A DNA stretch of 64,000 bases, from contig OZ241351.1 in assembly GCA_965200355.1 (NCBI GenBank), positions 529,884 through 593,883 on the forward strand. The letters are read 5' to 3'. Origin of the DNA: an uncultured Candidatus Binatia bacterium. GTDB taxonomy: Bacteria > Desulfobacterota > Binatia > Bin18. The position numbers and the translations under genes were made by a program. This document shows positions 3,426 to 54,976 of this stretch, one piece after another. The notes beneath the pieces are model-generated. The model was not told the origin of the DNA and did not search any database. It saw only the letters and a list, made by a program, of their open reading frames with translations. The first letter of the stretch is position 1. Each line of letters starts with the position of its first letter.

Positions 3426-6238
3426 TTAGCGTCTGCGCCTCCGCCATTTCCCCTTCGGCTTCCCCGCCAACGGCACCATCATCTTCTCATACAATCCAAG
3501 CAGATGTTCCACGCGCTCCCGCTCTGAGGCGAAGCCGCTACGGCGGTAGAGACGGTCTACGGCCCGGTCAAGCGTGGTGTGGGCCTTGCGCAGATTGGGC
3601 GGCATCAGGTCGGGGTCGTACAAGTCGGCTAAGGTTGCATCTGGATAGGCCGCGCGGCGTTGAGGACGGCTTGGGCCAGCGGTTCCAGCTTCGATAGGTC
3701 TGCGCCTGCGGGCGGTGTTGGGAAGGTGTTGTAGACGACCCCGACAGAATACATATAGTCGCTCTTCAGGCGGCCAGTCACGGTCCGCATCCACGCCATG
3801 TGCATGGCGGAGGTGAGCAAGGCAAAATCAGCGAAAGTGGCGTTGAGGAGAAGCCGCAGTTTGTCGCTCGGAACCACTGGCGGCGCTAACCAACCGACAG
3901 GGACATAGGCCCGTCTCTCAGAGCTGACCTGAGGAATGACCAGGAACGGCGCGGTGAGGAGCACATTCGCATGGTAGAGCGTGGGTGTTTCGGCCAGTTT
4001 TTGCGTCGGTTTGCTCTTGCTGGCCTGCCGGTAGGCACGAACCGCAGCCATGCGTTCCTTGACGTGAGGCAACTTTGCCAGCGTGGCTGACGGTGCGTCA
4101 TGCAGCGCCAGAATCCAGCGGGTTCCGCCGTGCAGATACTCGCGCGCCCCGACAAACGGGCGCAGGAAAGGTTCAGCGTCCGGTTCGGCCTGCAAGAAAG
4201 CCGCGCGTTCCTCGGAGTCGAAAATATATTGCCCGCCGTCAATCGGCTTGGAGCCTGTCAGCAGTTTTTGCGCTCCGTTAATCGGGCGGCTTTCCTCACG
4301 CACAGTAAGATGTGGGTCGGCCAAACCGCCAGCGTCGAACAGATAGGGGGACAGCGCAGTATGGCGGGTTTCCTCCGGGTCGCCGTTCAAGTCGGGATAG
4401 GCAAACAGGCGTTTCTCCGTCCGCGCGTTATCTCGTCGGTCCAATCCCAAAATGACCACATGCACATGGGCCTTACCGCGGGCGTCCGAGCCCCAGGCAA
4501 AGGGCCGGTGGGCAAAGGCGATTTCTAACCGGTAGCGGGCGAACAGAATCGGCCACAACTGGCCGACCTGCTCGCCCTGCGTGGTTGAGTTGGTCGCCAC
4601 AAAGCCGATGCGGGTCCGCCCGGTGACATACGCGCCCGCCTTGATGAGCCAGGCGGTGACGTAATCCAGGGTCCCGCCGCTGCCGCCCAGACCGGCGAGA
4701 CTGCGGACCTGTTGCCGTTGGGCTACGGTTTGAAACTTCGCGCCAACAAACGGCGGATTGCCGAACACGTAACTGCACTGCGCCGGCGGGAGCAGGCTTG
4801 TCCAGTCGGTTTCCAGGGCGTCACCATGCACGATATGAGGCGAGACGGTGAGGGGAATGCGGGCGTAGGTCTGGCCGAACTCCAGGCTGAGCCCGTTGTT
4901 CATGATGTGGTCCATCATCCACAGCGCAGTCTCCGCAATCCGAACCGGGAACGCGCCAAGCTCGATTCCGTAGAATTGGTCCACATTCACGCAGGACAGC
5001 TCGGCCACGTTCAGCACCCGTTGCGCGGTCTCGCCCGTCACCTCCCGGAGCGTCCGTAGCACCTCAAGCTCAAGCGAACGCAGTTCCCGGTAGGCGATAA
5101 TCAAAAAGTTGCCGCACCCGCAGGCCGGGTCCAGGAAGGTCAGTTGCCCGAGCTGGCGTTGAAAGGCCAGCAGGTCGGCCCGCTTGCGGCTGTCCTTGCG
5201 GGCCTTCAGATGGGCGAACTCGGTCCGCAGGTCATCCAGGAATAAGGGCTCGATGACCTTCAGAATGTTCTGCTCGGTGGTGTAATGCGCGCCCTGAGCC
5301 CGGCGCTCCGCCGGCTGCATGACGGATTGGAACAACGCGCCGAAAATGGCTGGAGAAATGGCCGTCCAGTCGAATCGGCAGGCGTCGAGCAATGCCTGTC
5401 GCATAGGGGTGGTGAAGGACGGAATGCGGGCCGGCTCCCGGAACAGTGCGCCGTTGATGTAGGGAAAAGCAGCCAAGTCCTCGTCCAGCGTGGCGGCCCG
5501 GTCGGGCTCCGGGGTATCCAACACCTGAAAAAGCTGGGCCAGCCACGGGCCTAGGTCCGAGCCGTCCTCGCGGGTGCGGGTTTCCAGGAACTCAAGAAAG
5601 CTGTCGCGCGGCGCGAAGATGCCGGTATCGTCGGCAAACAGGCAGAACACGAGGCGGACGAGAAATAGCTCCAGGTCATGGCCAGCCCTGCGACCAGGCT
5701 CAGGACGGGTGTAACCGGACTGTTGGAGCGCGTCGTGCAGATGGCCCATAAGTGCGGCCGCCTGGATATTGACCGGGTCCTGATCCTTGAACGTGCGTTT
5801 GTGTACGCCCAGAATGAAACCGAATTTTTCGACATTTTGGGGCAGGGCAGCCAAGGCGAAAGCCGCGCGTTGCCGCTCGTCCAGGTCGTGCAACGAGAAG
5901 GTCTGAAAGTCGCTGACCAGGATGTAGCGCGGACGTTGGGACTCGGGCAGGGCGTCAAAATAGTCGCTGGCTTGGTCGAACGCTGCCTTCAGGTCGCGGC
6001 CAGCGCTCTTCTGCTCGACGATCAGCACGCCCGGCCAGAACAGGTCGATGAAGCCCGACCGATTGTCCAGCTTCCTGACGTGCGCTTCGTAGCGGACCAC
6101 CGAACGGCGCTGGACCCCGAAGACCTCAAAGAAGTCATTATAGAAGCTGTGTGTCTCGCCTTTCTCGTAGGCCGCTCCGGCCCACTTCCGGGCAAACTCC
6201 GCCGCCCGGACGCGGATTTCGTTCCAGGAGAGCCGCAT
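3426..6238 (-). pseudogene. MmeI-family type IIL restriction-modification enzyme (fused endonuclease, N6-adenine methyltransferase and TRD); frameshifted near 3650
   Basis: The N-terminus MRLSWNEIRVRAAEFARKWAGAAYEKGETHSFYNDFFEVFG matches the MmeI N-terminal domain. Nuclease motif D-X9-EXK is present as FIDLFWPGVLIVEQK. The gamma-class MTase has motif I (LDPACGCGNF) and motif IV (NPPF). The family-typical C-terminus (LADLYDPDLMPPNLRKAHTTLDRAVDRLY) is read in a second frame, ORF 3426-3794. The junction lies at GCGCGGCC around 3650. Total about 937 aa; MmeI itself is 919 aa. Confidence 0.8.
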
Positions 6239-9285: not shown

Positions 9286-9436
9286 GGGTCCTCCTTCTTC
9301 TTTTCCTTGCTATACCCCGTCACGTCCCGAAAGAGAAGCACCGCTCCCGAGTCCGGGCCCAATCACCCGCCCGACTAGACGCCCCTGGCTCTGCTCAGTA
9401 TGAAGGACACAACGCTCCTGGACATGGAGGGCAGGC

Positions 9437-12400
9437 TTGGAAACCAAGGCTACGGGTGGGGGCTCGATTCGGGTCACTGGCGCGCGCCAGAACAATCTCA
9501 AAAACATCGATGTGCAGATTCCCCTGCGCCAACTGACGGTCGTGACCGGGGTCAGTGGGTCGGGCAAGTCGAGCCTGGCCTTCGATATTTTGTACGCTGA
9601 AGGGCAGCGGCGCTACGTCGAGAGCTTCTCGGCCTACGCGCGGCAATTTCTCGACCGGATGGACAAGCCCCAGGTCGAGCGCATTGACGGCATTCTGCCG
9701 GCCATTGCCATTGACCAGAACCGTCCTGTGCGGACCTCGCGTTCAACCGTGGGGACCATGACCGAGCTCCACGATCACCTCAAGCTGCTGTTTGCCAAAA
9801 TCGGCCGGCTGTACTGTCGGGAATGCGGGCAACCCGTAGAGCGCGACTCGGCCGAGTCGGTGTATAAAAAGCTCCGCCAGGAAAAGCCGGCCGGCTGTCG
9901 TTTTCTGGTCACGTTCAGTGTGGCCACGCCGGCCAGCCTGCCCTGGGAAGAAGTGCGCAACGGTCTGTTGCAGTCCGGTTTCTATCGGCTGGTTGTGGCT
10001 GGGAAGCCGGTCGATATCCAAGAATTGCCAGATCGACCCGAAGCGGAGCAGGAAACCTGTACCGTTCTGGTTGACCGCCTGACACTCACCACCCGCGCGA
10101 AAAAGCGCATTCACGACTCATGCGAACACACCTTTCAGTATGGCAAGGGGCGTCTGAGTCTGATTTTCCCCGATGCAGACCACCAAGAGGAATGCACCGT
10201 CATGCCGTTCTCGGAGCAGCTGGAGTGCGCGGCGTGCGGTATCGCCTATCAAGAGCCCGTGCCGAATATGTTCTCGTTTAACAGCCCGCTCGGTGCGTGC
10301 GAGACCTGTCGCGGGTTTGGTCGCACGATTGATATTGACCCGGAGCTGATCGTCCCCGACCCGACCCTGACGCTGAAACAGGGGGCCATTAAGCCCTGGC
10401 GGATCAAAGCGGCGCAATGGGAGCGCCGCGAGCTGTTTGCCTTTTGCGAACAGCAGGCCATTCCGACCGACGTGGCCTGGCAGGCGCTTGGCCGGGAGCA
10501 GCAGCAGGCCATTATGGACGGCGAGGGGGACTACTACGGCGTCCGGGGGTGGTTCAAGTGGCTGGAAACCAAAACGTATAAGATGCACGTGCGCATCTTT
10601 CTGGCCCGCTACCGGGGCTATTTCCCGTGCGAGGACTGTCGGGGGGCGCGCCTCAAACCAGAGGGGCTGCTGTATCGGGTTGGGGGCAAAACCCTGGCCG
10701 ATATCAATCTGATGAGCATCGGGGCGAGCGCAGACTTCTTTGCCACCCTCAAGCTGACCGCCTGTCAGGAGCAGGTCGCCCGGCTCATGCTGGACGAGAT
10801 TCGGAAACGCCTGCGCTATCTGGTTGAGGTCGGGGTGGAATATCTGACCCTGGACCGGCAGTCCCGCACCCTGTCCGGCGGTGAACTGGAACGGGTGGAC
10901 CTGACCACGGCGATTGGGTCCGCTCTGGTCAACACCCTGTATATTCTGGACGAACCGTCAATCGGCCTGCATCCGCGCGACAGCCAACGCCTGGTCCGTA
11001 TTCTGCAAGACCTGCGCGACAACGGCAATACGGTCGTGGTGGTTGAGCACGACCCGGAGATTATTCGTCAGACCGATCATGTCATCGACCTAGGCCCCCT
11101 GGCTGGTGAAAAAGGCGGCGAGGTTGTGTTCAACGGGCCATATCCCAAGCTGCTCAAAGACAAGCAGTCGTTGACCGGTCAATACCTGTCCGGCCGGCGG
11201 ACCATTCCGCTCCCGCCCAAACGTCGGCCTGTCAAGAAAAAATACACGCTGACCGTCCAAGGGGCGAGCGCCCATAACCTGCAGGACATTGATGTCACCA
11301 TTCCGCTCGGCCGGCTAGTGTGTCTGACCGGCGTCTCTGGCTCGGGTAAATCAACCCTGGTGGAAGACGTGCTCTACCATGGCCTCAAAAAGCAGCGGGG
11401 GGAGCCGGTCGGCATTCCGGGCGCGTGTCGCGCCATCCGGGGCGGCGAGCAGTTGGCCGACATTATCTTTGTCGATCAGTCGGCGATTGGCACAACCCCG
11501 CGGGCCAATCTGCTCACCTACACCAAGGCGTTTGACACGGTGCGGCGTCTCTTATCGCAGACCGAGCTGGCGCGGGTGCGTGGCTATACGCCGAGCACCT
11601 TCTCGTTCAATGTTGAGGGGGGGCGTTGCGAGTCGTGCAAGGGCGAGGGCTTTGAAAAAGTCGAGATGCAGTTTCTCTCGGACGTGTACGTCCCCTGCCC
11701 CGAGTGTCAGGGCAAACGTTTTCGGGCCGAGGTGCTGCAAGTCCGCTATCAGGGCAAGAGTCTGACCGATATTCTGCATTGTACGGTTGCCGAAGCCCTC
11801 GCCTTTTTTGGCGAGCACAAAGAACTGACGCGCCGTCTGTCCCCGCTGGCCGCGGTCGGGCTGGAGTATATGCGCCTGGGTCAGGCGCTGACCACGCTGT
11901 CCGGCGGTGAGGCCCAACGGCTGAAGCTGGCCACGCATATCGCAAAGGAGCGTTCCACCGACTCGGTTGAGCACGGCACGCTGTTCCTGTTTGATGAGCC
12001 TACAACCGGACTGCATTTTGCCGATATCCAGAAGCTGCTGGGCGCGTTTGACCAACTGGTCGCCTATGGCCATTCGGTCCTGATTATTGAGCACAATCTT
12101 GAGGTCATTAAGTCCGCCGACTATCTGATAGACCTTGGGCCCGAAGGGGGAGACGGCGGCGGGACGATTGTGGCCGTGGGGACGCCGGAAGAGGTGGCCC
12201 AAGCGCCAGCCTCGCATACCGGACGCTATCTCAAGGAGGTCCTGGGCATTGCCACGACCGGACGCCGCTCGCGGCCCAAGTCGCGGAAGGCCAAGCCCCC
12301 AGCCCGGCCACCCGCTGCGGCGGGGGGGACAGGCGTCAACGGAGCAGCGTCTCAGAGCGGGTTGGAGGATACGTTTACGCCTGACGGCCAGTCCATTGCC

Positions 12401-15169
12401 ATTATTGGAGCCAAGGAACACAACCTGCAAGACATTTCGGTTGATATTCCGCGCGACCAGATGGTGGTGGTCACGGGCCTGTCCGGCTCTGGCAAGTCAA
12501 CCCTGGTGTTTGATCTGGTCTACGCCGAGGGGCAGCGACGCTATATTGACAGTCTGTCGGCCTATTCGCGGCAGTTCATTAAAGTCCTCGCCCGCCCAGA
12601 TGTTGATCTGCTGACCGGTATTCCACCCACGGTGGCTATTGAGCAGCGCATGAGCCGGGGCGGCCGGAATTCGACCGTGGCCACCGTGACCGAGCTGTCG
12701 CATTACTTGCGGCTGCTGTATGCCAAAATTGGCGTGCAGCATTGTACGCAGTGTGGCGCGCCGCTGACCGCGCGGAGCCGGAGTCAAATCCTGGAGCGCA
12801 TCCAGGCAGATTTTCATGGCCAGGACATCACCTTTTTCGCGCCGGTGGTGCGAGGGCGGAAGGGGTTTCACAAGGACATTCTCGCGGGGGCGCGCAAGCT
12901 GGGTTTTGTGCAGGCGCGGATCGACGGCCGCACGACGACTATTGAGCCGGGTCTGAGTTTGGCGCGCTATAAAGAGCACGATATCGAGATTGTGATTGGT
13001 CAAACGCAAGTGCGCCGCGCCAACGGCAATCGACGCGACACTGAAGCCCTGCTCCAGTCGGCTCTCCGGGTTGGGAGTGGAACGGTCCAGGTGGGCGGCG
13101 AAGACGAGCGGACCTATAGCGAGCATCTCTTCTGTGCCGCCTGCGGCCTTGGGTTTGAAGAGCCTGACCCGCGCCTGTTCTCCTTTAACAGCCGCCAGGG
13201 GGCCTGTCCGGCCTGCACGGGGGCCGGCTTCGTGTGGGAGTTTGATCCCGCCCTGATTGTCCCGGACGAGGGCAAGTCGCTGAAACAAGACGCGCTGCTG
13301 CCGCTCGCCCGGTCCGAACTAAAACGGGCGAAGACCAAGCTGTTACGCGGGCTCAAAAAGCTGGGGGTGCCGGTTGACCGGCCCTTTAGCGAGCTGAACG
13401 CAGAGCAGCGCCAACTGGTCTTTGCCGGGGACGAGCAGGGCGTGCAAGGGGCGCTCGCTATCCTGAATGACGCGCTCGAATCTGGCCAGGATACGGATTC
13501 GTCTCCTGCGCTCTCGCAGTTCCTGGGCGAGTCGGCCTGTCCGGAATGTCAGGGCGCGCGTCTGAACCCGCGCGCGCGGGCCGTACAGGTCTCTGGTCAG
13601 TCGCTCCCGGGGCTGATGCGTCTGTCGGTGGCAGACTGTCTCGGTCGTTTGCAGGCCCTGCCTCTGTCCGAGCGGGACACGCTCGTCGGGCGACCGATTC
13701 TCAAAGAACTCGTCCCCAGACTCACCTTCCTGAATCAAGTCGGCCTGTCCTATCTGTCCCTGGACCGCCGGGCCGACACCTTGTCTGGCGGAGAGGCGCA
13801 GCGTATTCGTCTGGCCGCCCAACTCGGCTCTAATCTGTGCGGGGTGTGTTATATCCTGGACGAACCGACCATCGGACTGCACCCTCGCGATAATGCCCGC
13901 CTGCTTGAGACCCTGCGGCAGCTGCAAGAACGCGGCAACACCGTACTGATCGTTGAACACGACGAGCAGACAATAGAAAATGCCGATGTGGTGATTGACC
14001 TGGGTCCAGGCGCCGGCGTGCATGGCGGCCAGGTCGTGGCCATGGGCCCGCCCCAGCAGTTGCGTGAAAATAGGGCCTCTCTCACCGGCCAGTTTCTCTC
14101 CTCGGATCATTCGCGGCTCGGCCCGATTCGCTCTCTCAAAGAGCGGCCGCGGTTACGCCTGCGGGGCGTGCGCGAGAATAATCTGAAGAATATCGACGTT
14201 GATATTCCGCTCGGGACGTGGGTGGGCGTGTCCGGGGTGTCCGGGTCGGGCAAGAGTTCTTTGGTCCAGGAAGTCCTGGTCAATGGACTGCGGCGCAAAC
14301 TTGGCTTGTACGTCGGGCGGGTGGGGCTGCATGACAGCATCGAGAATACCGAGGGGGTGGAGCGGGTGGTCGAAGTCGATCAGTCGCCCATTGGGAAAAC
14401 CCCGCGTTCGGTCCCAGCGTCCTATGTGGGCTTCTGGGACGAGGTCCGCAAGCTCTTTTCGCTCCTGCCCGATGCGCGGCTGCGCGGCTATAAACCGGGT
14501 CGATTCTCTTTCAATGTGAAAGGCGGACGCTGTGAGACCTGTAGCGGACAGGGCCGCATGAAGATGGAGATGAGTTTTCTACCCGATGTCTATGTCACCT
14601 GCGATGGGTGCGGGGGCCGGCGCTATAACGAGGAGACCCTGGAAATCGCCTATAATGGCAAGAACATCGCCGAGGTGCTGGACATGACGATTGAAGAGGC
14701 GGCGACATTTTTCATTGGGGTGCCCAAGGTCGCCCAACCGCTCGCGCTGCTGAACGATATCGGCATGGGCTATATCCGGCTGGGGCAGGCCAGCAATACG
14801 CTGTCCGGCGGCGAAGCCCAGCGTATCAAACTGGCCTATGAGCTGGCAAAACGCTCGCGCGGCAAAACGCTCTACGTCTTGGACGAGCCAACCACCGGGC
14901 TGCATTTCGCCGACATCGAAAAGCTGATTCATACGCTCCACCGTCTGGTTGATAAGGGCAATACGGTGGTGACGATTGAACACAACCTGGATATTCTCAA
15001 AGAAGCCGATTACATCGTTGACCTGGGTCCCGAAGGGGGCGCCGGCGGCGGCTCCATTGTGGCCAGCGGCCCGCCGCCGCAACTCATGCAGCAGACCCAG
15101 CAGTCCTATACAGCCCAGTGTTTGCAAGCCTATCTGCACGGAGGGAATCATAGTGCGCGGACAGACTGA
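9437..15169 (+). CDS. uvrA: tandem-fused double UvrA-like ABC ATPase (two complete UvrA modules in one 1910-aa ORF)
   Basis: Module 1 (aa 1 to ~950) and module 2 (~960-1910) each carry two Walker A sites (GVSGSGKSS / [12 protein letters not shown]; [11 protein letters not shown] / [11 protein letters not shown]), two LSGGE signature motifs and Cys4 zinc modules. They are joined by a Pro/Ala/Lys-rich linker ([21 protein letters not shown]) with no stop. Confidence 0.85.
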
Positions 15170-18332: not shown

Positions 18333-19280
18333 TCAGGACCGCGGGTGATACTTCCGATGCACCTCGCGTAAGCGCGCGCTCGCCAGGTGGGTGTAGATTT
18401 GCGTTGTGGCAATATCGACGTGCCCCAGCATGGACTGGACCGCCCGCAGGTCTGCTCCACCCTCAAGCAGATGCGTGGCAAAGGCGTGTCGCAAGGCGTG
18501 GGGATAGACCCGGCTGCCCTCAGGATGCTGCTTGGCGTAGCCGGTGATGATTGCCCAGAATGCTTGACGGGTCAGCGGCTTGCCAGAGCGAGTCAGGAAA
18601 ATATAGTCGCTGCTGCGCTGCTTCAACAGGACCGGACGAACGGTGTCGAGATAGCCTTGGAGCTGCGAGAGCGCCCGAGTCCCGAGGGGGACGAGGCGTT
18701 CCCGGTTGCCCTTGCCTCGCACCCGGACGAAGCCGGCTTCCCTGTTGACCTGAGAGACGGTCAGCCGAACCAGCTCGGAGACGCGCAGCCCGGTCGCATA
18801 TAAGACTTCGAGCATGGTCTGGTTGCGCTTGCCGAGCGGGGTCGCCGTATCTGGGAGCGAGATAAGGGCCTCTACCTGCTGCTGGGAGGGCACCTGAGGC
18901 AGGGCGCGCCCAAACTTGGGCAGCTGGAGCAGGGCGGTTGGATTCTTGCCGGGCAGTGCGTTTTCCCGTTGCAGGAAGCGGTATAAACCACGCAGTGCGG
19001 TTAAGACCCGAGATTGGGTCCGGGTTGAACGGCCCTGCTCGTACAGGCTACTGAGAAAGCCAATAATATGGCGCGAACCGGCCTGTCTGATGTCCGCAAT
19101 ATCCTGGGTCGATAAATAGGCCGAGAACCGGTGGAGGTCCCGACTGTAGACCTCGACCGTCCGCAGGGTTAAGCCCTTTTCTACGGTGAGATAGCCCAGA
19201 AAGGTATCAAGCAGGATGTCACTCTGGGTACTGTTTTGGGGAGAGCGGGTGGTCTGGTGAGCGGCGACGGGCTGAGTCAT
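18333..19280 (-). CDS. xerD: site-specific tyrosine recombinase XerC/XerD
   Basis: N-terminal SAM-like domain (TVEKGLTLRTVEVYSRDL) and a C-terminal catalytic domain with RHAFATHLLEGGADLRAVQSMLGHVDIATTQIYTHL (R..HxxR..Y). Confidence 0.85.
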   Translation of the reverse strand: MTQPVAAHQTTRSPQNSTQSDILLDTFLGYLTVEKGLTLRTVEVYSRDLHRFSAYLSTQDIADIRQAGSRHIIGFLSSLYEQGRSTRTQSRVLTALRGLYRFLQRENALPGKNPTALLQLPKFGRALPQVPSQQQVEALISLPDTATPLGKRNQTMLEVLYATGLRVSELVRLTVSQVNREAGFVRVRGKGNRERLVPLGTRALSQLQGYLDTVRPVLLKQRSSDYIFLTRSGKPLTRQAFWAIITGYAKQHPEGSRVYPHALRHAFATHLLEGGADLRAVQSMLGHVDIATTQIYTHLASARLREVHRKYHPRS

Positions 19281-35512: not shown

Positions 35513-37387
35513 ATGAACGAACCGCAGCGCACCTGCCAGACTGTTGCCCGACTCCTCTTGCTCTGCTTTCTGCTCTATTTTCTGGATCTCGGACGGATCC
35601 CTTTTTACAATTACGAAGAGTCCAAAGAAGCCCTGATCGTCTGGGAAATGGTGAACGGCGGGGGGTGGATTCTCCCCCTTCGGAACGGAGTGGAACAGCC
35701 GCTCAAGCCACCGCTGTTCCACTGGATTGGGGCTACGGTCTCTTTGCTCACTGGCCAGGTGAGCGAGCTGGCCGTCCGTCTCCCTTCTGCCTTGTTTGCC
35801 ACGGCCACCGTCCTGGGGACATTTTTCTTCGGCCGTGCGCTCTGGAACTGGCGCGTCGGACTGCTGGCCGCTTTGATCCTGGGCACCTGCCCGGAATGGG
35901 TCCGGTGGTCCATTAATGCGCGCAGCGATATGGTCCTGCTGTTTTTCCTGACCGCGGCGCAGTTTTTCTTTTTTCGGGTTTTCCAGGAACGCGCGACGCA
36001 ACCACGGACGCTCTTTCTCTTCTATGCCAGCGTCGGTTTTGCCATCCTGGCCAAAGGACCGCTGGGGTTGCTGCTGCCCATCCTGGTTGGAGGCAGCTTT
36101 TTGTGGTGGACCAAAGAACTCGCCTTTCTGCGCCGGCTGCGTCTCGGCCACGGACTGCTGATCGCGGGCGGTATTGCGGCCTCTTGGTATGTGCTGGCCG
36201 TCTTCCAAGGCGGCGGAGAGTTTGTCCAACGCCAGATTCTGGATGAGAATGTGTTCCGATTTTTCGCCAGTGAGAAAGGCGGGCCGAGCCGAGAGCACAC
36301 GTTCTTGTACTACCTGCCAACCCTTGTTGTCGGGATGCTGCCCTGGAGCCTGTTTCTGCCCGCACTCGGGTTGACGCTCTACCGGGCAGACGGCCTCTGG
36401 CGGGAGAAGAAACATCTCTACCTGCTGCTGTGGGTGGGGGTCGAGTTGCTCTTTTTTACCCTCGCGTCCGGGAAACGCAGTAACTATATTCTGCCGCTCT
36501 ATCCGGCCCTGGCGCTCTTGCTCGGGCGGTGGTGGCAGGAATTGATAGAGGGGTCGCGAGTGTTATCAGCGCCTGGAATCAAACGGGTCGTCCGCGGCTG
36601 CGCGCTGGCCCTGGGCGGTGCAGGGCTGCTCATGCTCATTGTGCTCGTGACCCACGGCCTTGGCTTTAATCTGGAGCACCTGATTTCGCCTTTCCTGCAT
36701 CCTCGGGACCGGGCGAATCTGCCCCTTGTCGCGCAGAGCCTCCAAGGTCAGTTTCCGCTCGTCTGTATCTGGATTGTGCTGCTCGTCGGAGCAGCCGGCT
36801 GGTATATCTGGGGGTTGCGCCGGGACCGCTGGGTCCCGGTCTTTGCGGCCTTGACGGTTTCGGTCTCCGCGTCCTTATACTTTGCGAATGCCCTGTTTCA
36901 TCCGCTTCTGGCCCAAGAGCGGACGTATAAACCCTTCATGCTGGGCGTGCGTTCCCTGGTCCAAGACGCCCCGCTGTATTTTTATCACCCCGCCTCTGAT
37001 TATGGGGCTATTTTCTACGCGGACCGTCGGATTCCTGAAATGAACCAGCACGCCCTCCAACCGTCCTCGGACGCTGGGCCCATTGACGCCGCGTCCCCGG
37101 AGAGAAGACCGGGCGGTGTGTCACAGACCGCGGCGACGCTGTATGTCCTCGTCCGTGAGACGGATTGGCCGGCGCTCGCCCAGAGCCAGCCCCACCTTGA
37201 GCGCCTGGTCACGAGTGAGGGCAAGGGACCGAACAAGAAACATCGCCTGGTGCTGGGCGCGCTGCTCGCTCAATCTGAGCAAAAGGGGGACATGGGGGGA
37301 GCCGCCTTACCGGCCCCGTCCGAGTCCGAAGGGGCCGCCTCGCCTGAAACCTCAGGGGAACCCGTGTACGAGAACGCGGCCTCGTGA
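35513..37387 (+). CDS. GT-C fold glycosyltransferase, ArnT/PMT_2-like (GT39/GT83), paralog 1
   Basis: Multi-TM N-terminal half with an acidic loop motif YNYEESKEALIVWEM (compare the ArnT DE.RYAE motif) and PPLFHW. Soluble C-terminal domain. Confidence 0.8.
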   Translation: MNEPQRTCQTVARLLLLCFLLYFLDLGRIPFYNYEESKEALIVWEMVNGGGWILPLRNGVEQPLKPPLFHWIGATVSLLTGQVSELAVRLPSALFATATVLGTFFFGRALWNWRVGLLAALILGTCPEWVRWSINARSDMVLLFFLTAAQFFFFRVFQERATQPRTLFLFYASVGFAILAKGPLGLLLPILVGGSFLWWTKELAFLRRLRLGHGLLIAGGIAASWYVLAVFQGGGEFVQRQILDENVFRFFASEKGGPSREHTFLYYLPTLVVGMLPWSLFLPALGLTLYRADGLWREKKHLYLLLWVGVELLFFTLASGKRSNYILPLYPALALLLGRWWQELIEGSRVLSAPGIKRVVRGCALALGGAGLLMLIVLVTHGLGFNLEHLISPFLHPRDRANLPLVAQSLQGQFPLVCIWIVLLVGAAGWYIWGLRRDRWVPVFAALTVSVSASLYFANALFHPLLAQERTYKPFMLGVRSLVQDAPLYFYHPASDYGAIFYADRRIPEMNQHALQPSSDAGPIDAASPERRPGGVSQTAATLYVLVRETDWPALAQSQPHLERLVTSEGKGPNKKHRLVLGALLAQSEQKGDMGGAALPAPSESEGAASPETSGEPVYENAAS

Positions 37388-37396
37388 CGCCGCCCG

Positions 37397-39175
37397 GTGG
37401 GTGCTGTTCCTACTGCCGAGGAAAAGCTGTTGCAATCCCGCGTTTTCTTCTGTGGCGTGATGCTCAGCCTCTTCTGCGGCCTGATATTCATCTGGGGCCT
37501 GGGTGATATCCCGTTTTATACCAAGGGACAACCGCGCGAGGCGACCGTTGTCTGGGAGATATACCACAATGGAGACTGGGTACTGCCCTTGCGCAACGGC
37601 CATATCATTCCGTCCAAACCTCCGCTCTTTCATTGGCTTGGAACAGCGGCAGCGCTGGCCTGGGGTCAGTTGAGCGAGTTCTCGATTCGGTTTCCTTCTG
37701 CCTTACTGGCGCTGTTGGGCGTGCTCCTGACCTATCGGGCCGGTGCGGCCGTGTGGGGTGTCGAGGCCGGGCTGATTGCTGGGCTGATCCTGGCCACCAG
37801 CTTTGAATGGGTCCGGGCGGCGACAACAGCCCGGGTGGATATGACCCTGACCTTTTTTATGGTCGCCGCCTTTTTCTCTTTTTGGTCCCTCTATCGTCAA
37901 CAACAGGTCGGGTGGCTTGAAGCGCTCAGCTTCTTCTGCCTGCTTGGTCTGGCAACCCTGGCCAAGGGGCCCATTGGTGCGTTGCTCCCAGGATTGGTGG
38001 TCGGCGTCTTCCTGTGTGTCAAACGCGACCTGCGGTTTATCCGTCGGCTGCATCTCGTCACGGGTGGTCTGCTGTTCGTCCTCATCGCCGGGTCGTGGTA
38101 TGGGCTGGCCCTGTGGCAGGGTGGCGAGGCATTTTTTGAGAAGCAGATCATGAAAGAAAATATCCTGCGCTTTTGGGCGAGCGAGTCGGCCGGCGCCGGG
38201 CATGTCCATCCTTTCTATTATTTTATTCCCAATCTGTTTCTGGGCATGGCCCCGTGGAGCTTTTTCTTTCTGCCGCTGTGCTATTTTTTATATCAATGTC
38301 GGCAGGACTGGGCCGAGAAGCATTTTACCTATCTGATTGTCTGGATCGTCACGATTTTCGTGTTCTATTCGGCTTCGAGCAGTAAGCGCACGGTGTATAT
38401 TCTGCCCATCTATCCGGCGCTAGCCCTGCTGCTGGGGGCGTGGTGGCAGGAACTCCGTCGAGGAGAGATCAATCTGCCCCCCGGCTTTCTCACATTGCTG
38501 AAGGCCGTCGGCGCTGTCTGCTGTGGGGTGATCGGTCTGGCCATGCTCGGTGTGCTTGCCCAGGCTGGCGGGTTTGATCCACTGGGGCTGATCCGGCCGT
38601 TTCTGCACCCAAAAGACCAGAGCAATCTGCCTATGTTCACGGGTATCGTTGCCGACTATCCTGGTGCATTTGCCGGCTGGTTTGTAGGTGTTGGCAGCGC
38701 CCTGGCCCTGTTAGTCTGGGGATTGCGACGCCAGTCCTGGGAGCGTGTTTTCGGCGGGTTGGTGGTGTTCGCGACGAGTATCTTTTTGCTCATCAACCAC
38801 GTGATTCAGCCCACGCTTGCCGCGGCGCGGACCTTTCGGCCTTTTATGGGCCGGGTCGTCGAGCGAGCCGGGGAGCAGCCCCTCTTCTTTTTTCGGAGCT
38901 TTGACAGCGGAGCCCTGTATTATGCCGACCGACGTATTCCCTTCTATGCTCCGTCTACCACCCCCCAGACCCGCTATTTTATCCTGCTCTGGGAGGAAGA
39001 GTGGGAGCGCCTTCAGGCCAGAGATTTTGGGGACCGACTTCGTCGTATTGACACCAGCGAAGGCACCGGCCCCAAGGGGAATCACCGCCTCCATCTGGTT
39101 GAAGTCCCGGCCAGCCTCGAACTCCCGCCCTGGGAAGACGACCTGAAGGGCTTGATTCGGAAAGACGCAATGTGA
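37397..39175 (+). CDS. GT-C fold glycosyltransferase, ArnT/PMT_2-like (GT39/GT83), paralog 2
   Basis: Collinear similarity to 35513-37387 (TKGQPREATVVWEI, PPLFHW, FEWVRAATTARVDM). Lies 10 bp downstream of paralog 1. Confidence 0.8.
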   Translation: MGAVPTAEEKLLQSRVFFCGVMLSLFCGLIFIWGLGDIPFYTKGQPREATVVWEIYHNGDWVLPLRNGHIIPSKPPLFHWLGTAAALAWGQLSEFSIRFPSALLALLGVLLTYRAGAAVWGVEAGLIAGLILATSFEWVRAATTARVDMTLTFFMVAAFFSFWSLYRQQQVGWLEALSFFCLLGLATLAKGPIGALLPGLVVGVFLCVKRDLRFIRRLHLVTGGLLFVLIAGSWYGLALWQGGEAFFEKQIMKENILRFWASESAGAGHVHPFYYFIPNLFLGMAPWSFFFLPLCYFLYQCRQDWAEKHFTYLIVWIVTIFVFYSASSSKRTVYILPIYPALALLLGAWWQELRRGEINLPPGFLTLLKAVGAVCCGVIGLAMLGVLAQAGGFDPLGLIRPFLHPKDQSNLPMFTGIVADYPGAFAGWFVGVGSALALLVWGLRRQSWERVFGGLVVFATSIFLLINHVIQPTLAAARTFRPFMGRVVERAGEQPLFFFRSFDSGALYYADRRIPFYAPSTTPQTRYFILLWEEEWERLQARDFGDRLRRIDTSEGTGPKGNHRLHLVEVPASLELPPWEDDLKGLIRKDAM

Positions 39176-39300: not shown

Positions 39301-40657
39301 TTAGTTCGCTGTCTCAAACGGGCTCGCTGGTGGCAAACTGGTGGGAGGAGACTGGCGGGCCTTCGCTTCTCGGGTCGCTTGGGTCTCCCGATATTCGCGT
39401 GCCTCCGCGACCCGTACAAACTGCGCCGTTACACCCTTCTTCTTGACGAAATCTTCTACCTCGTCCAGCTTCACATTCTGATAAAACTCTTTTCGCGGGT
39501 TGATCAAGTTCACACGCCGCTCTGCAAAATGTTCGTGGAGCGCCTGCTCAAGCGCTGGTGCGTTATCTGAAAACATCATAGTATGGAGGTCGAAGGGAAA
39601 GGGCACAGAGGCATCTCCCAACTCCTTCACTCGGTCCATAGGCTCCATCCGTCGTGTCATCCCAATCTTAACTACGCCCGGGCCGAATGATCCCTCGTTT
39701 GAGATGACATAGACAAATCCTGATTTTGTGAGCTGTGCCCGAGCTACCGCGCGTTCCTTCCGCTCATGTGTCTCGCTTAGTTTATTCTCTAGGGCGGCAA
39801 TCTGTGCGGTCAGCTTTTCCAACTGTGCCCCTGTTGCCCTATCCGCTGCCGCTTGCGCTTCCTCTAGCGCCTTTTGGTTCCGTGCTTCCTCCCGCTCTGC
39901 TTCTGCCTTGGTCTTTTCCAGTTCTCGTTCCGCTTTCTCTTGCTCCCGCGTCTGTTGCCGCTGTTCGCGAGCCTCCTCGCGTTCTGAGTATTTATTCGTG
40001 CGTGAGCCTGATTTCGTTGAGTTTTTCCTCCAGGTAGGCACCAGTGATGGAAATCTTGACGGCAGCCCCCAGCTTGTTGATGTCAGCATGGGCCTTTTTC
40101 ACTCGCTCTTCTATCTTGCTGATATTATTCCAGGACACTTTGGCAACCGCGGCGTCGCACTCGCCATTGAAAGCCCGGAGTATCACTTTTGTATACTGCC
40201 GCTCCATCTTTTTCCCCTCCGCCCGGCTTCCGTCAATGGTCCATCCGCCAGGAGTTGCAGTGGCCCCGTTCGTCCGGATCAACTCCTTCTGTCGGCCCCG
40301 TACAACCTTCAACTCCGCTTTGTATTCTTCGGATGTGTCGAACTTATAGTGCGGCGAGTAGAGTCTGAACGATATATCCTCCAAGTTCTCTTCGAGGAGG
40401 GAAACCGTGCTCTTCAACTCCTCGTACTTGCTGCTTGCTGATCGGTACTGCTCCTCTAAATCGGTGCGTTTTTCCTGACTTTTCTTCAGGAAGTCCTCAT
40501 GTTCAGCTTTCAGCCGTGCGGATTCCTTTTCCACATCAACGATGGCATTAAAGCGCCTTTCCAGTGCGTTCCTCTTTCGTAAGGTCGAAACAGCGAACAC
40601 GAGGACCACTGGACTACTGGCTGCTAAAAGCCACAGTATAGCCGTTAGAAAATCCAT
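39301..40657 (-). pseudogene. DUF4041 + T5orf172 (GIY-YIG-like nuclease superfamily) domain protein; frameshifted near 40010
   Basis: The N-terminal DUF4041 coiled-coil part is ORF 39992-40657. The C-terminal T5orf172 domain (GFVYVISNEGSFGPGVVKIGMTRRMEPMDRVKELGDASVPFPFD) is in ORF 39301-40089 in another frame. The junction lies in an A-rich run (CACGAATAAATAC). AT-richer than the flanks. Confidence 0.7.
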
Positions 40658-49363: not shown

Positions 49364-52300
49364 TCAGGAGATGCCCACGCTCATCCCGACGAACCAGTAC
49401 CGGCCCAGGGCATCGTACAGGCCGGGGAAGGTGTTACCGCCCCGGCCGGCCTCACCGATAATCGGCGGTTCCTTGTCAAACAGGTTGCGGATGCCGATCC
49501 GCAGGCTGGCGTACTGGTTGACCTCCCAGAGCACCGACAGGTCGAAATAGTGCCGGGCATTGACCGGGATGGGGCGGTCCGGGTCGGTCTCGGTGCTGGT
49601 GCTGATATAGCGCCACATCAGACTGGGCTGCACCCCCCAGGGACTCCGCCAGGTGGTCCGCATAATGTTACGGATTCTCGGGGTCGGGGTGCCGCAAGAG
49701 TAGCCCCAGCTCCCGGCGCAGGCGACCTTCGGAATATCATCCGTTGCTTTCAGGGTATAGGTATCGAGAAAGGACAGCCGGTCCGTAAAGTTGACCGAGC
49801 CGTAGCGGCCAAGACTGAGTACATAGTCCACGCTGAAATCGTAGCCGCGGACCTCGGCAATAGCCAGGTTCTCCAGTACGGCCTCAACATGGCCGGTGGT
49901 CTCGATGGTGTTGGAAGACAGCCACAGGTCGCCGCCCGGTCCGCGATTGACCTTGTCGCACTGAGAGAGGTTGCCGTCCAGGCAATGATTCAGGACCGTC
50001 TCGGGCGACAGCGCGCCGACCCCGCCCTTGAGCTCGATTTCGTAATAATCCATGCCAATGCTGAGGCCCTCAAGAAATCTAGGGGTAAAGGTCAGGCCGA
50101 ACGAGTAGGTATCCGCATCTTCGGGAAGCAGGTCGGGATTGCCCCCGATCAGGAAATTGTACTGACCGGCCGGTGAGTCGGGGATATTACCGAACTGCTC
50201 GGCGGTCACTCCGCTCCGGGCGCACTCCTCAAGGGTGCGGCCGGACGCGGTTCTGCCGTCCACCACCTCGCCGGCGCACGGGTCGGCGGTCATATAGATC
50301 AGGCCCAGCCGCTGGGGCAGGAATTGTTCCCGGATACTCGGGGCGCGCACGGCCCGCTGATAGCTGCCGCGCAGGCTGATGTCATGGCTGATGGCCCAGC
50401 CGGCCCGCACGCCGTAGGTATCGGTCTGGACGCCGTACCAGGACGAGCGATAGCCGCCGTTGACGATCAGTTGCTGGATAAACGGCACGTCTTCGATGAG
50501 CGGAATGCCGGCTTCAATGAAAACCGCTGGCACGTCGAAGCCACCCTTGAGCGGCTGCTGTGCACCGCCAAAGCCGGCCCCGTCACCGCTCTGGCTTCCG
50601 AGGTCGGGCTTGTATTTCAGATTTTCCTCTCGCCATTCGACGCCCAAGGCGATTTTGGCGCCGGTGGTGGCAAACGGAGAGACCAGGCCGTATTGTCCGA
50701 GATTAGCCGAGACCTGGCCGGATATGACATGCTGATTGGTGCTGCCGCGGGTGGTGTACGTTCCGGCGATATAGTCGGTCATGTCTTTGGTGACCGCGCC
50801 GTCCTGGAAGATGTTCCAGGGGACACAGTTCGGGTCGGCCCCGGTCAGCATCGACCGACACACGATATCCCCGCTCACCGGGTCGTATACCGCATCCAGG
50901 GCGCGGTTGATCCGGCTGGCCGACAGGCCGTTGACGAATTTGCTCAGCGCGCGCACCTCGGCGTATTGGTAATGCAGATTATAGCGCCAGGCATCGGCAA
51001 TCTCGCCCCGCAGCCCGAACACGCCACGATAGGAGGTGTGGTGCAGGTAATCTTTGCGATTGCCGCTCTCGACGCTACGCCGCCCGATATACACATTCTG
51101 AATGTCTTCCCGCGTCAAGCCGTACTGGCCGCACAGGGCCTGAAACTGCTGTTCAGACAGAAAGGCGTTGCCGCAGTGCAGATAGCGCTGCCTGAAAAAC
51201 GAGCCCGAGGGCGCAATCTGGGGGTGGTGCGGTCGTCCATGAACATGAGTTCGGTGTACGCCTCAACGTGTTCGTTCAGGTCATAGTGGGCAAAGGCACC
51301 GGCGGTCCAACGGGTGTCGGGCCGTTGAAAATGATTCGGGGGCGCGTAGTTGTAGAGGCGACCGTCCCAGTCGGTGAACTTATCTCCTTCGACCTGGTAG
51401 AAGAACGGCGGTCCGGGGTCGTATCCGTCCCTCACTTGGCGGGTGCCGAAGTCGGCAAACAACCCCTTGGGGATGGTGCCTGAGCCGACACACCGGTCAA
51501 GGTTGGGTGTCAAATCGCAACTGGAGTGGTCTCGGTCGCCCAGGAAAACCTCTCCGCCATCCCGCCAAGTCGCATAGGCGGTGATATTGCCGCGATCACC
51601 GTTCAGGTTTTTCCCCAGAATGAGCGACACATTCGACAGCTCGCCGTCCGCGGTCGAGTCGTCGGCCACGTGATAGCCCTGACCGGAGATCAGTTTTTTC
51701 ACCGAGCGGTTGTCATTATCGTGCTGGTGCTGGCTGAACTGATAATCCAGCTTGATTCCCTCGAAGTTGTCGATCAATACGAAGTTAATCACGCCGGCGA
51801 CCGCATCCGAACCATAGGTCACAGAGGAGCCGCCGGTCAGGACATCCACGCGCTTGAGCAGAGCGCCCGGAACCTGGTTAATATCCTCGTTGCCAGTCCC
51901 GCCCCAGGGCGAGCCGGCCGGCATCCGACGGCCGTTAATTAACACCAGGATGCGCGACGAGCCCAGGTGGCGCAGGTTCAGGGTCGCGATCCCGTTCGCG
52001 CCGTTGGCGTTGGAGGCATCCTGACCGCCGGTAAAAACCGAAGGCAGGGAGCGGACCAGCTCTTCCACCCGAACGGTTCCCTGGTGCAGCACTTCTTCGG
52101 CGTCAATACTGACAATCGGGCCAAGCTCGACCTGGTCGTCCGCTTGCAGGAGACGCGACCCGGTGGTGGTCACGACCAGGGGTTTCAGGGCCTCTGGTTT
52201 CTGCGGCTCTTGGCTGGATTCAGCCGGCGGCTCTTCACCGGCTTGCGCCTGTTCAGCGTCCGCCTGAGCGGTGTTTTCGGCCCTGACCTGTCCGGCGAGG

Positions 52301-52434
52301 GCAATGGCGAGGGCCAGCGTTGTGACAAGAGCGGCCCAGCGTGTATACGCTTGCCACTGAGCCAGACCGAGGGGCAGGGTTTCATCCTGGCCCACAACTT
52401 TATCCTGGCCCACAACAAAGTGCGGTTTGGTCAT
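49364..52434 (-). CDS. TonB-dependent receptor (large), copy 2; apparent frameshift near 51240
   Basis: Collinear paralog of copy 1 (plug ORF 51115-52557, barrel ORF 49364-51118). The frame breaks in a C5 run (ACCACCCCCAGATT); a C6 run would give MFMDDRTTPQIAPSG, matching copy 1. Start at MTKPHF (52434). A tandem 15-bp repeat lies at about 52388-52418. Confidence 0.8.
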
Positions 52435-52622
52435 AATGTCTTCCTCATCCTTGGGCAACACGACTATAGGGCGAATGTTTTCGGCGGTATTGTGGCACGC
52501 ATTTGAGCCGCGTTCAAAGGCTGGTTGTGATTTGTGGACAGCCCTTGGTGGGTACACTACCTCCCCTCATGTGTCGAGTGCTGTACCTATTGTGATTTGC
52601 GGCGTTGTGGATTGCGGACCCT

Positions 52623-52915
52623 TCAGAGCAAGTCGTCCATGTCTACGCCCAGGGTCGTGGCAATGGCGGCCAAGGTCTGAGCCGACCCGGTACGTCGGCC
52701 AGTCTCAATCTGGACAGGTAAATCGCGTTGATACAGCGGTCCTGGCCAGTTGCTTCTGTGTCAGTCCGCGCTAGTCACGATACACCCTGACGGCGTTTTC
52801 TCCCGCCAGCAAGCGGTCTGCCACGGCGATGGGAAAGGTTTCTTCATTTTCCACCTTGGCCCGGTCGTACAGTTCTTCGTCGGTCAGACTTGCCTCGCCA
52901 CCCGCCGCTATTATT
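52623..52915 (-). pseudogene. decayed XRE-family HTH gene (HigA-type antitoxin-like remnant)
   Basis: Minus-strand translation gives PIAVADRLLAGENAVRVYRD*RGLTQKQLA... and QIETGRRTGSAQTLAAIATTLGVDMDDLL in different frames, with an in-frame TAG. This is an HTH_3 pattern (LTQxQLA...YLSQIE.G.R) broken by at least two frameshifts and one stop. Confidence 0.45.
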
Positions 52916-52929
52916 CTAATCACGCGGCT

Positions 52930-53739
52930 CTATCGCCGTCGTCGCAAGAAGTCTTCGATCATTTCCTTTTTTGAGTCAATCATTCTGGCGATGAATGCTT
53001 GATAGCTCTCCTTTGGATAATGCGGATTTATGACAAGCGTAATCATTTCAATTGAAATAGAAGACGGCGATATGTGCGCGTACAGGAACTTTAATTCGTC
53101 AAGGTGCTCTTTTAGCGTCAGTTCCCGGCCTGTTGAATACCCCGTCTCGATTCGACGGTTGAGTATTTTTTGGAGTTGTTCATGTGTTGCAATAGAGGTA
53201 GCCGTATCGGAGCGTACATAGACCCTGCCAGATTTGATTTGATCACCATCAGCCATGCTGATGAACGGAAGATAGTGGGGACGATCTTCGACAAGTAGGA
53301 CCTGGAATTTTTTCCCTTTGATTGCACTATATTCGGATTCCTCGAACGAGAAATTGAATACATCGTAGTCGATATCTTCTGGAAGAAATTTCTTTACAGA
53401 ACTGCGTACGTCCGTTTTATCCGTCAATTCGGGAATCCCAACTGAGGACAACGATCCGTCGGTACATTCTTTGACGCCAATGACCATGACACCACCGCCG
53501 GAATTTGCGAAGCCAAGAATGTCACGCGCGAACTCGGCCCTAGCCCCTTTCGGCAACCACCGTTCCTTGAAATCAAGGTAGTCAAATTCGCCGGTATGGT
53601 TTTTCAGCAGTTCTCGTAAATGGCTCCGAGTCGGTTTCTCAAAGAACTTAGCGAACACCTCATAAGTCCATTTTGATTGTTCCTCCTGTTGTGCCACTTT
53701 TGCCACTATCGTCTTTCGAGTCTCGGTAGCTTGACTCAA
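52930..53739 (-). CDS. AlbA_2 (Schlafen-core-like putative nucleic-acid-binding) domain protein
   Basis: DYLDFKERW...ILGFANSGGGVMVIGV...RVYVRSDTATSIATHEQLQKIL matches the AlbA_2 (PF04326) pattern (EFK..., AFANt.GG.l.iGv). In an AT-rich islet. Confidence 0.65.
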   Translation of the reverse strand: MSQATETRKTIVAKVAQQEEQSKWTYEVFAKFFEKPTRSHLRELLKNHTGEFDYLDFKERWLPKGARAEFARDILGFANSGGGVMVIGVKECTDGSLSSVGIPELTDKTDVRSSVKKFLPEDIDYDVFNFSFEESEYSAIKGKKFQVLLVEDRPHYLPFISMADGDQIKSGRVYVRSDTATSIATHEQLQKILNRRIETGYSTGRELTLKEHLDELKFLYAHISPSSISIEMITLVINPHYPKESYQAFIARMIDSKKEMIEDFLRRRR

Positions 53740-53748
53740 AAAGCAGTA

Positions 53749-54924: not shown

Positions 54925-54976
54925 GCTGTCGATATAGTTAAGTACATCCCGGACTGTTTAAGTAGTTAATGGTTTG

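Follow-up and report, generated by a model that had tools for sequence, protein, structure and literature searches.

Does a UvrA that carries two complete units in one chain use them as two equal copies, or has it divided the features of a UvrA between them? This question is raised by the tandem uvrA-uvrA open reading frame (ORF) of an uncultured Candidatus Binatia bacterium, which lies in a 64,000-nucleotide stretch of contig OZ241351.1 (GenBank assembly GCA_965200355.1, positions 529,884 to 593,883), referred to here as the window. We found that the canonical features of a UvrA are distributed reciprocally over the two units and that this division spans phyla. This is the new point of the present analysis, and the interest of the tandem UvrA lies in it. 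The protein probably acts in excision repair as a covalently tethered UvrA heterodimer, with the N- and C-terminal halves (N-half and C-half) of one chain paired with each other and possibly with a single docking site for UvrB.

The identity of the two units was established domain by domain. TIGR00630 matched each half end to end, with 1074.6 bits for the N-half and 1127.9 bits for the C-half (cutoff 729.8). Against NF001503 (cutoff 1147), the C-half passed with 1162.5 bits, the N-half fell just below with 1077.7 bits, and the whole protein reached 2266. Solved UvrA structures (3pih, 2r6f, 9gxk, and 3zqj) likewise aligned end to end with each half, with E-values of 1e-250 to 1e-281. An initial annotation, made from the sequence alone, had recognized four ABC ATPase domains with Walker A and LSGGE motifs and two sets of zinc modules. 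All four domains were located, two per unit, each with Walker A, Walker B, LSGGE, and H-loop, and 12 CxxC pairs were found at the Zn module 1-3 positions of each unit, giving six Zn modules. The three modules of a unit (Zn1, Zn2, and the Zn3 hairpin) were conserved in both the N-half and C-half clades of the family, and the four sets of Walker A/B, signature, and H-loop motifs together with the six Zn modules were kept across 37 non-redundant family members, the Walker A lysines being invariant in both clades. Neither the Zn modules nor the UvrB-binding modules, whose loss would speak against full-length UvrA units, were missing from either half. The wedge residues Y62, Q65, and F66 and the hairpin tip F755 (Clostridium thermocellum numbering, PMC12796330) were kept in both halves, as were most of the residues that the same study assigns to the dimer interface of C. 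thermocellum UvrA. The insertion domains of both halves matched PF17755 at profile positions 1-66 of 110 only and were approximately 20 amino acids (aa) shorter than the references. Taken together, these matches indicate that each half is a full-length class I UvrA unit. The two halves of the window protein were 41% identical to each other.

A scan of the full ORF for motifs and frame detected no in-frame stop, as the initial annotation had reported, and a covalently linked pseudo-dimer is the natural reading of two complete units in one frame. What the initial annotation had described of the ORF proved accurate throughout. One rival explanation is that an assembly or sequencing artefact merged two adjacent uvrA paralogs, or that the gene is a pseudogene. 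In a scan of relatives that took one genome per species, at least 569 loci were obtained, i.e., the same fusion was present in at least 569 species genomes of several phyla (Binatia, Deltaproteobacteria, Acidobacteriota, Verrucomicrobiota, and others), and the best 80 loci were retrieved. In 72 of these 80 loci, closed chromosomes of 3.6-9.2 Mb among them, both units were spanned by a single open frame 1800 aa or more in length, and the remaining loci were mostly interrupted by contig ends. The stop or frameshift at the linker that would split the ORF into two ordinary paralogs was found in none of the 72 full loci. The linker was present in every one of them and always in frame, although it varied from approximately 20 to approximately 70 aa and its sequence was not conserved. 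In comparisons with Binatia orthologs, the ratio of nonsynonymous to synonymous substitution rates (dN/dS) was 0.07-0.14 for the N-half, 0.08-0.16 for the C-half, and 0.2-0.9 for the linker. Because the frames are intact across independent assemblies and dN/dS is close to 0.1 in both halves, an artefact is effectively refuted, and both halves are functional and under purifying selection. We saw no support for the artefact: the single in-frame stop of one ortholog (L015, 72% identity, stop at 4689-4691) lies inside the N-half and not at the junction. This stop may reflect a pseudogene, a sequencing error, or recoding, and the Enterobacteriaceae label of that metagenome-assembled genome (MAG) is probably wrong. 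A protein identical to the window tandem UvrA (P0001) is also on record in NCBI/ENA, on a 3.83-Mb contig.

The initial annotation had regarded the architecture as unusual. In the sense of rare, this did not hold: apart from the 569 or more species genomes, all of the best 150 matches to a two-half profile, searched against 1.84 billion representatives at 50% identity, were tandem UvrAs, and a chlamydial UvrA of double length has its own NCBIfam model, as discussed below. The source records name these proteins plainly "excinuclease ABC subunit UvrA". Full-text searches of the accessible literature found no paper treating natural UvrA-UvrA fusions as such. The tandem architecture is thus catalogued, widespread, and already annotated, and the family is uncharacterized.

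The age of the fusion was estimated from the halves taken separately. The closest loci were Candidatus Binatia MAGs with 85-90% identity to the window protein, and identity dropped stepwise by phylum: approximately 59% in members labeled Deltaproteobacteria/Syntrophobacter, approximately 53% in Acidobacteriota, approximately 47-48% in Myxococcota and Gammaproteobacteria, and 44-46% in Verrucomicrobiota. Among 71 members, N-halves were 45-92% identical to the window N-half and C-halves 47-91% identical to the window C-half, whereas any N-half against any C-half gave 36-45%. Both halves were 42-49% identical to canonical UvrAs, which were 55-67% identical among themselves. A neighbour-joining tree (828 columns, unrooted) was constructed from 37 non-redundant members, each contributing its N-half and its C-half, together with four canonical UvrAs. 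All three groups (N, C, and canonical) were separated with 100/100 bootstrap support, and the window N-half grouped with the N-halves and its C-half with the C-halves, as expected of a member of the tandem family designated "alpha" here. Pairwise N-N and C-C distances were correlated with r = 0.95 and a slope of 0.97. Since the clades are separate with full bootstrap support and the halves co-diverge, the fusion is ancient, predating the divergence of the lineages that carry it, and the halves have been inherited together as one gene. The choice between an ancient fusion and a recent duplication, which the initial annotation had left to a phylogeny of the halves, was therefore decided for the former.

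To compare the two units, columns that are invariant in four reference UvrAs, yet kept by one clade only, were screened for across the 37 non-redundant members. The N-halves alone kept the UvrB/Mfd contact residues. The entropy of R176, D205, R206, R216, and E222 (E. coli numbering for the last four) was 0-0.7 bits in the N-halves and 1.3-3.2 bits in the C-halves, and D205/R206 and R176 were invariant in the N-halves only. At the R216 position, arginine was present in 37 of 37 N-halves versus 3 of 37 C-halves; at the E222 position, glutamate was present in 33 of 37 versus 11 of 37. Both positions were unconstrained in the C-halves (2.9-3.2 bits), and the commonest residues at the R216 position there were glutamate and aspartate (15/37), which is a reversal of charge. 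The window C-half has D1201 and Q1207 at these two positions. In E. coli UvrA, R216A/E222A is the "UvrB interaction surface" mutant, in which global and transcription-coupled repair are equally affected, and deletion of residues 131-248 abolishes both (PMC3025350). The helix R-L-x-D/E-S/A-L-E-x-A-L was invariant in the N-halves and unrecognizable in the C-halves, as determined by an ungapped recount anchored on the conserved residues that follow it. The insertion domain was also better conserved among N-halves (47% identity) than among C-halves (21%), with 36% among the references, and many related tandem UvrAs have a second unit from which it is wholly lost.

The reverse was observed for a second set of columns. 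K159, G160, L192, and H198 of the APxVxGRKGxH and LxRYKEHxI motifs had an entropy of 0-0.3 bits in the C-halves, and K159/G160/H198 (G. stearothermophilus numbering) were invariant in the C-halves only; in the N-halves, these three were lost (2.7-3.0 bits) and L192 was usually deleted. The DNA-binding residue R730 (E. coli numbering) was present in 37 of 37 C-halves and in 0 of 37 N-halves. The helix that follows LSGGE in signature domain I (R494, A496, Q498, G505, and V506, G. stearothermophilus numbering) was canonical in the C-halves only, and the identity of signature II to the references was 53% for N-halves and 60% for C-halves. On this comparison, neither unit alone carries all canonical UvrA invariants.

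These differences might be neutral drift or fine-tuning in a dimer that is tethered yet functionally symmetric, in which the fusion only secures a 1:1 stoichiometry and effective concentration and both halves load UvrB. Every catalytic and Zn motif is present in both halves, Pfam recognizes the UvrB-binding-domain fold in both, and purifying selection is equal on the two. In addition, a second tandem family, designated "beta" (e.g., P0123, P0133, and P0157), keeps R216/E222 and D205/R206 in both units. A symmetric dimer is nevertheless unlikely. At the same canonical-invariant positions, one half has 0 bits and the other 2.7-3.2 bits; this holds across phyla and in both directions, and because the positions are fixed in one half and free in the other in this way, the half-to-half differences are not drift. 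The charge reversal at the R216 position argues in the same direction.

We propose that the N- and C-halves, joined by the flexible linker, most likely pair within one chain. Such an N:C pair would form a DNA-clamping damage sensor with four ATP sites, equivalent to a free UvrA homodimer, and this tethered sensor would pass DNA on to UvrB during nucleotide excision repair. One complete UvrB site would be composed of the N-half UvrB-binding domain and the C-half signature II. In the reciprocal pair, made of the C-half UvrB-binding domain and the N-half signature II, the UvrB-contact helix is degenerate and signature II is less canonical, and the complex would thus be intrinsically asymmetric, A-A':B1. 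Alternatively, two chains could come together through N:N and C:C pairing, or in a domain-swapped manner, and the resulting assembly would contain eight ATP sites. The dimer-interface residues are largely kept in both halves, which would fit this alternative. However, T84/V85 of the C-half and N509/T510 of the N-half are changed; they belong to the same one of two pseudo-symmetric N:C contact patches, the other patch being canonical on both sides, and the changed residues would be mismatched in N:N and C:C pairs and are matched in N:C. This pattern, although suggestive only, would favor N:C pairing over N:N plus C:C. Linkers down to approximately 20-25 residues are kept at a fixed junction, consistent with a defined intramolecular geometry, and pairing between chains is considered very improbable.

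Unlike the architecture, the integrity of its motifs, the age of the fusion, the purifying selection, and the reciprocal conservation pattern, all of which the data show, the intramolecular N:C pairing, the role in excision repair, and the use of one UvrB per molecule are what we infer from these data, and several observations weigh against the tethered heterodimer with a single site. The C-half UvrB-binding domain outscored that of the N-half overall in Pfam (82 versus 46 bits), and because it does so, its well-kept GRKG/H198 patch may serve a separate function, binding UvrB or something else. The UvrB-contact argument draws on two documented contact residues (R216 and E222), and the signature II part of the one-site argument draws on overall conservation. 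Moreover, the window contained neither uvrB nor uvrC, nor did the 10-kb flanks of the 80 loci, and tblastn with E. coli UvrB gave no match in the window. The uvr genes are usually dispersed in genomes, and the absence of uvrB nearby is normal. If right, the one-site idea is confined to the alpha family, because the beta tandem UvrAs keep the UvrB-contact residues in both units. The strictest form of the idea, a hard-wired asymmetric heterodimer with one surviving UvrB docking site, with only the N-half insertion domain constrained, and with a single UvrB loaded on a predetermined side, is put forward tentatively and is considered rather doubtful.

The protomers of the UvrA homodimer behave differently at a lesion in recent cryo-EM work, with UvrB binding one side first (PMC11985968). 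It is debated whether UvrA loads one UvrB or two and how the damaged strand is selected. In a UvrA homodimer, a mutation affects both sides, whereas in a natural single-chain UvrA-UvrA one side can be altered by itself. If functional, the asymmetry would make the tandem protein a direct experimental means of studying protomer-specific roles, including the A2B1 versus A2B2 question that homodimeric UvrA obscures, and excision repair in many uncultured lineages (Binatia, Acidobacteriota, and Verrucomicrobiota) would rely on a sensor of different construction. If the asymmetry is not functional, the gene is an ordinary, already annotated uvrA variant.

The features of the tandem uvrA and of the other loci mentioned below are compiled in Table 1. 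The linker, which the initial annotation had placed at approximately 12.23-12.40 kb, was located within that interval and was non-conserved and of low complexity. It is approximately 20 residues longer than those of the closest Binatia orthologs, which read LVAEVGSGK (12305-12385, residues ~957-983), and its basic stretch is common to Binatia and absent beyond them. A scan for promoters and terminators around the tandem uvrA gave nothing exceeding the shuffled expectation.

Table 1. Positions of the tandem uvrA features and of further loci in the window.
Feature	Nucleotides	Strand	Protein residues	Remarks
Tandem uvrA-uvrA ORF	9437..15169	+		1910 aa, TTG start, stop included, single frame
GGAGG, Shine-Dalgarno-like	9427..9431	+		5 nt 5' of TTG; read from the sequence, function inferred
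N-terminal UvrA unit	9458..12244	+	8-936	both ABC modules, three Zn modules
Inter-unit linker	12245..12385	+	937-983	47 aa, low-complexity, A/G/P/T/R/S/K-rich
C-terminal UvrA unit	12386..15136	+	984-1900	canonical ATPase core; signature-II DNA-binding residues kept
UvrB-binding domain, N-half	9809..10228	+		Pfam PF17760, 46.4 bits (cutoff 23.3)
N-half VDR... segment	10073..10135	+	D213/R214, R224, E230	= E. coli D205/R206, R216, E222 (UvrB/Mfd surface)
Insertion (DNA-binding) domain, N-half	10313..10627	+		PF17755, 59.3 bits; ~92 aa vs ~112 in references
UvrB-binding-domain fold, C-half	12737..13144	+		Pfam PF17760, 82.1 bits (cutoff 23.3); keeps LxRYKEHDI
Insertion domain, C-half	13229..13537	+		PF17755, 40.8 bits; weakly conserved
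Walker A 1	9548..9571	+	38-45	N-half nucleotide-binding domain I (NBD-I), GVSGSGKS
Walker A 2	11330-11353	+	632-639	
Walker A 3	12476-12499	+	1014-1021	
Walker A 4	14234-14257	+	1600-1607	
LSGGE 1	10871..10885	+	479-483	N-half signature domain I
LSGGE 2	11897-11911	+	821-825	
LSGGE 3	13781-13795	+	1449-1453	
LSGGE 4	14801-14815	+	1789-1793	
Walker B (four)			501-508, 849-856, 1472-1478, 1812-1819	
H-loops (four)			536-539, 884-887, 1506-1509, 1847-1850	
MmeI-family type IIL restriction-modification enzyme	3629-6238	-		869 aa
XerC/D-type tyrosine recombinase	18333-19280	-		Phage_integrase + SAM-like N domain
Two tandem PMT_2-family glycosyltransferases	35513-39175	+		624 and 592 aa
T5orf172/MUG113-domain protein	39301-40089	-		262 aa
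TonB-dependent receptor, apparently split	49364-51118, 51115-52557	-		plug-domain ORF and beta-barrel ORF, 4-nt overlap
Low-GC stretch	52000-56000			GC 0.51-0.52 vs ~0.60 elsewhere
ORFs of the low-GC stretch	52930-53739, 53749-54924	-		Schlafen AlbA_2-domain protein adjoining an IIGP/dynamin-like GTPase

On one side, the neighbours of the tandem uvrA are an MmeI-type restriction-modification enzyme, an alcohol dehydrogenase, a glyoxalase-fold protein, and an FMN reductase, and on the other side a SnoaL-like protein, MeaB, a tyrosine recombinase, and GlnD. The surroundings are ordinary chromosomal genes with no biosynthetic cluster. The restriction-modification enzyme gave strong Pfam matches for its N-terminal, helicase-spacer, methyltransferase, and target-recognition domains, and the recombinase gene is located 3 kb downstream of the fused uvrA and adjoins MeaB and GlnD. 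Further away, the low-GC stretch looks like an acquired island, and its two ORFs are possibly a defence gene pair. The split of the TonB-dependent receptor may reflect a frameshift in the gene, an error of sequencing, or a true two-gene arrangement. The strongest negative AT skew of the window (-0.23 to -0.27) coincides with the two PMT_2 glycosyltransferases, and the T5orf172/MUG113-domain protein is encoded between these and an H+-pyrophosphatase. When the window was searched by tblastn with E. coli UvrA, only the two fused units matched, in agreement with the initial annotation, which had seen no separate uvrA; the 10-kb flanks of the 80 loci likewise contained no further uvrA.

Canonical class I UvrAs (E. 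coli; G. stearothermophilus, 2R6F/3UWX; Thermotoga maritima, 3PIH; Mycobacterium tuberculosis, 3ZQJ; and C. thermocellum, 9GXK) are 45-49% identical to each half over the full length. Like them, each half possesses ATP-binding domains I and II, signature domains I and II, UvrB-binding and insertion domains, and three Zn modules; unlike them, the window protein has two units in one chain, with the invariants split between the two.

Class II UvrAs (Deinococcus radiodurans UvrA2, 2VF7; Ecm16, 7SH1; and DrrC) are UvrA-fold ABC ATPases, as are the window halves, and the initial annotation had suggested that the tandem protein might be a paralog for drug or ribosome-associated resistance rather than for classical repair. 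A non-repair paralog of this kind would need no UvrB to shield DNA from intercalating drugs, and a separate housekeeping uvrA would be present elsewhere in the genome. The greater divergence of the halves from canonical UvrAs than of these from one another and the N-half score slightly under the NF001503 cutoff are in keeping with such a role, and tandem fusions of two class II units (~1600 aa) exist. However, class II UvrAs are defined by the missing UvrB-binding domain and act without UvrB (PMC3167621; bioRxiv 10.1101/2022.02.02.478902), whereas both halves have this domain; class II membership was thus rejected. Matches to class II UvrAs were also weaker, with 578.9 and 486.3 bits for the N-half and 618.2 and 461.8 bits for the C-half. 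The UvrB/Mfd contact residues kept in the N-half, the lack of an antibiotic biosynthesis context around the gene, and conservation over many phyla with identity stepping down by phylum further argue against a non-repair paralog, which we regard as improbable, and the suggestion of the initial annotation was set aside.

The chlamydial double UvrA (NCBIfam NF001885/PRK00635, 1809 positions) is likewise of approximately double length and is annotated as excinuclease ABC subunit A; the uvrA gene of C. trachomatis (ct333) is 5,361 bp long and encodes 1,786 aa (PMC6686042). Membership of the window protein in NF001885 was rejected, as it scored 1227.6 bits against a cutoff of 3054, and five other tandem representatives also failed, with 1000-1297 bits. 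Both window halves aligned best to the first half of this model (positions 6-902 and 10-921).

When the best 150 tandem proteins were examined with a single-unit hidden Markov model, several architectures were distinguished: two full units; a full unit followed by one lacking the insertion domain (full+ΔID, e.g., a Planctomycetota protein); the reverse order (ΔID+full); a full unit followed by one lacking the UvrB-binding domain (full+ΔUBD); and two class II units (ΔUBD+ΔUBD, ~1600 aa), such as the 1629-aa protein of Acanthopleuribacter pedis. In some tandem UvrAs, the first or second unit is without both the insertion and the UvrB-binding domain. Some are longer than 2300 aa, with additional sequence at the C-terminus (P0123 and P0126). 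The other tandem UvrAs have the same layout of unit, short linker, and unit, and the window protein differs from those with a reduced unit in keeping all domains in both units. Many of them share the alpha pattern, with the UvrB-contact residues in unit 1 and KG/R730 in unit 2, whereas the beta group, unlike the window protein, has the UvrB-contact residues in both units.

Functional asymmetry between two protomers is shown by the M. tuberculosis UvrA2-UvrB1 intermediate (Genta et al. 2025, PMC11985968), a complex with a "recognition" and a "support" insertion domain and with one UvrB bound first. In that homodimer, the asymmetry is induced by the lesion and the second UvrB binds later, whereas the asymmetry of the fused protein would be fixed in the polypeptide. 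By this analogy, the asymmetry seen in M. tuberculosis seems to have a sequence-encoded counterpart in the fused family.

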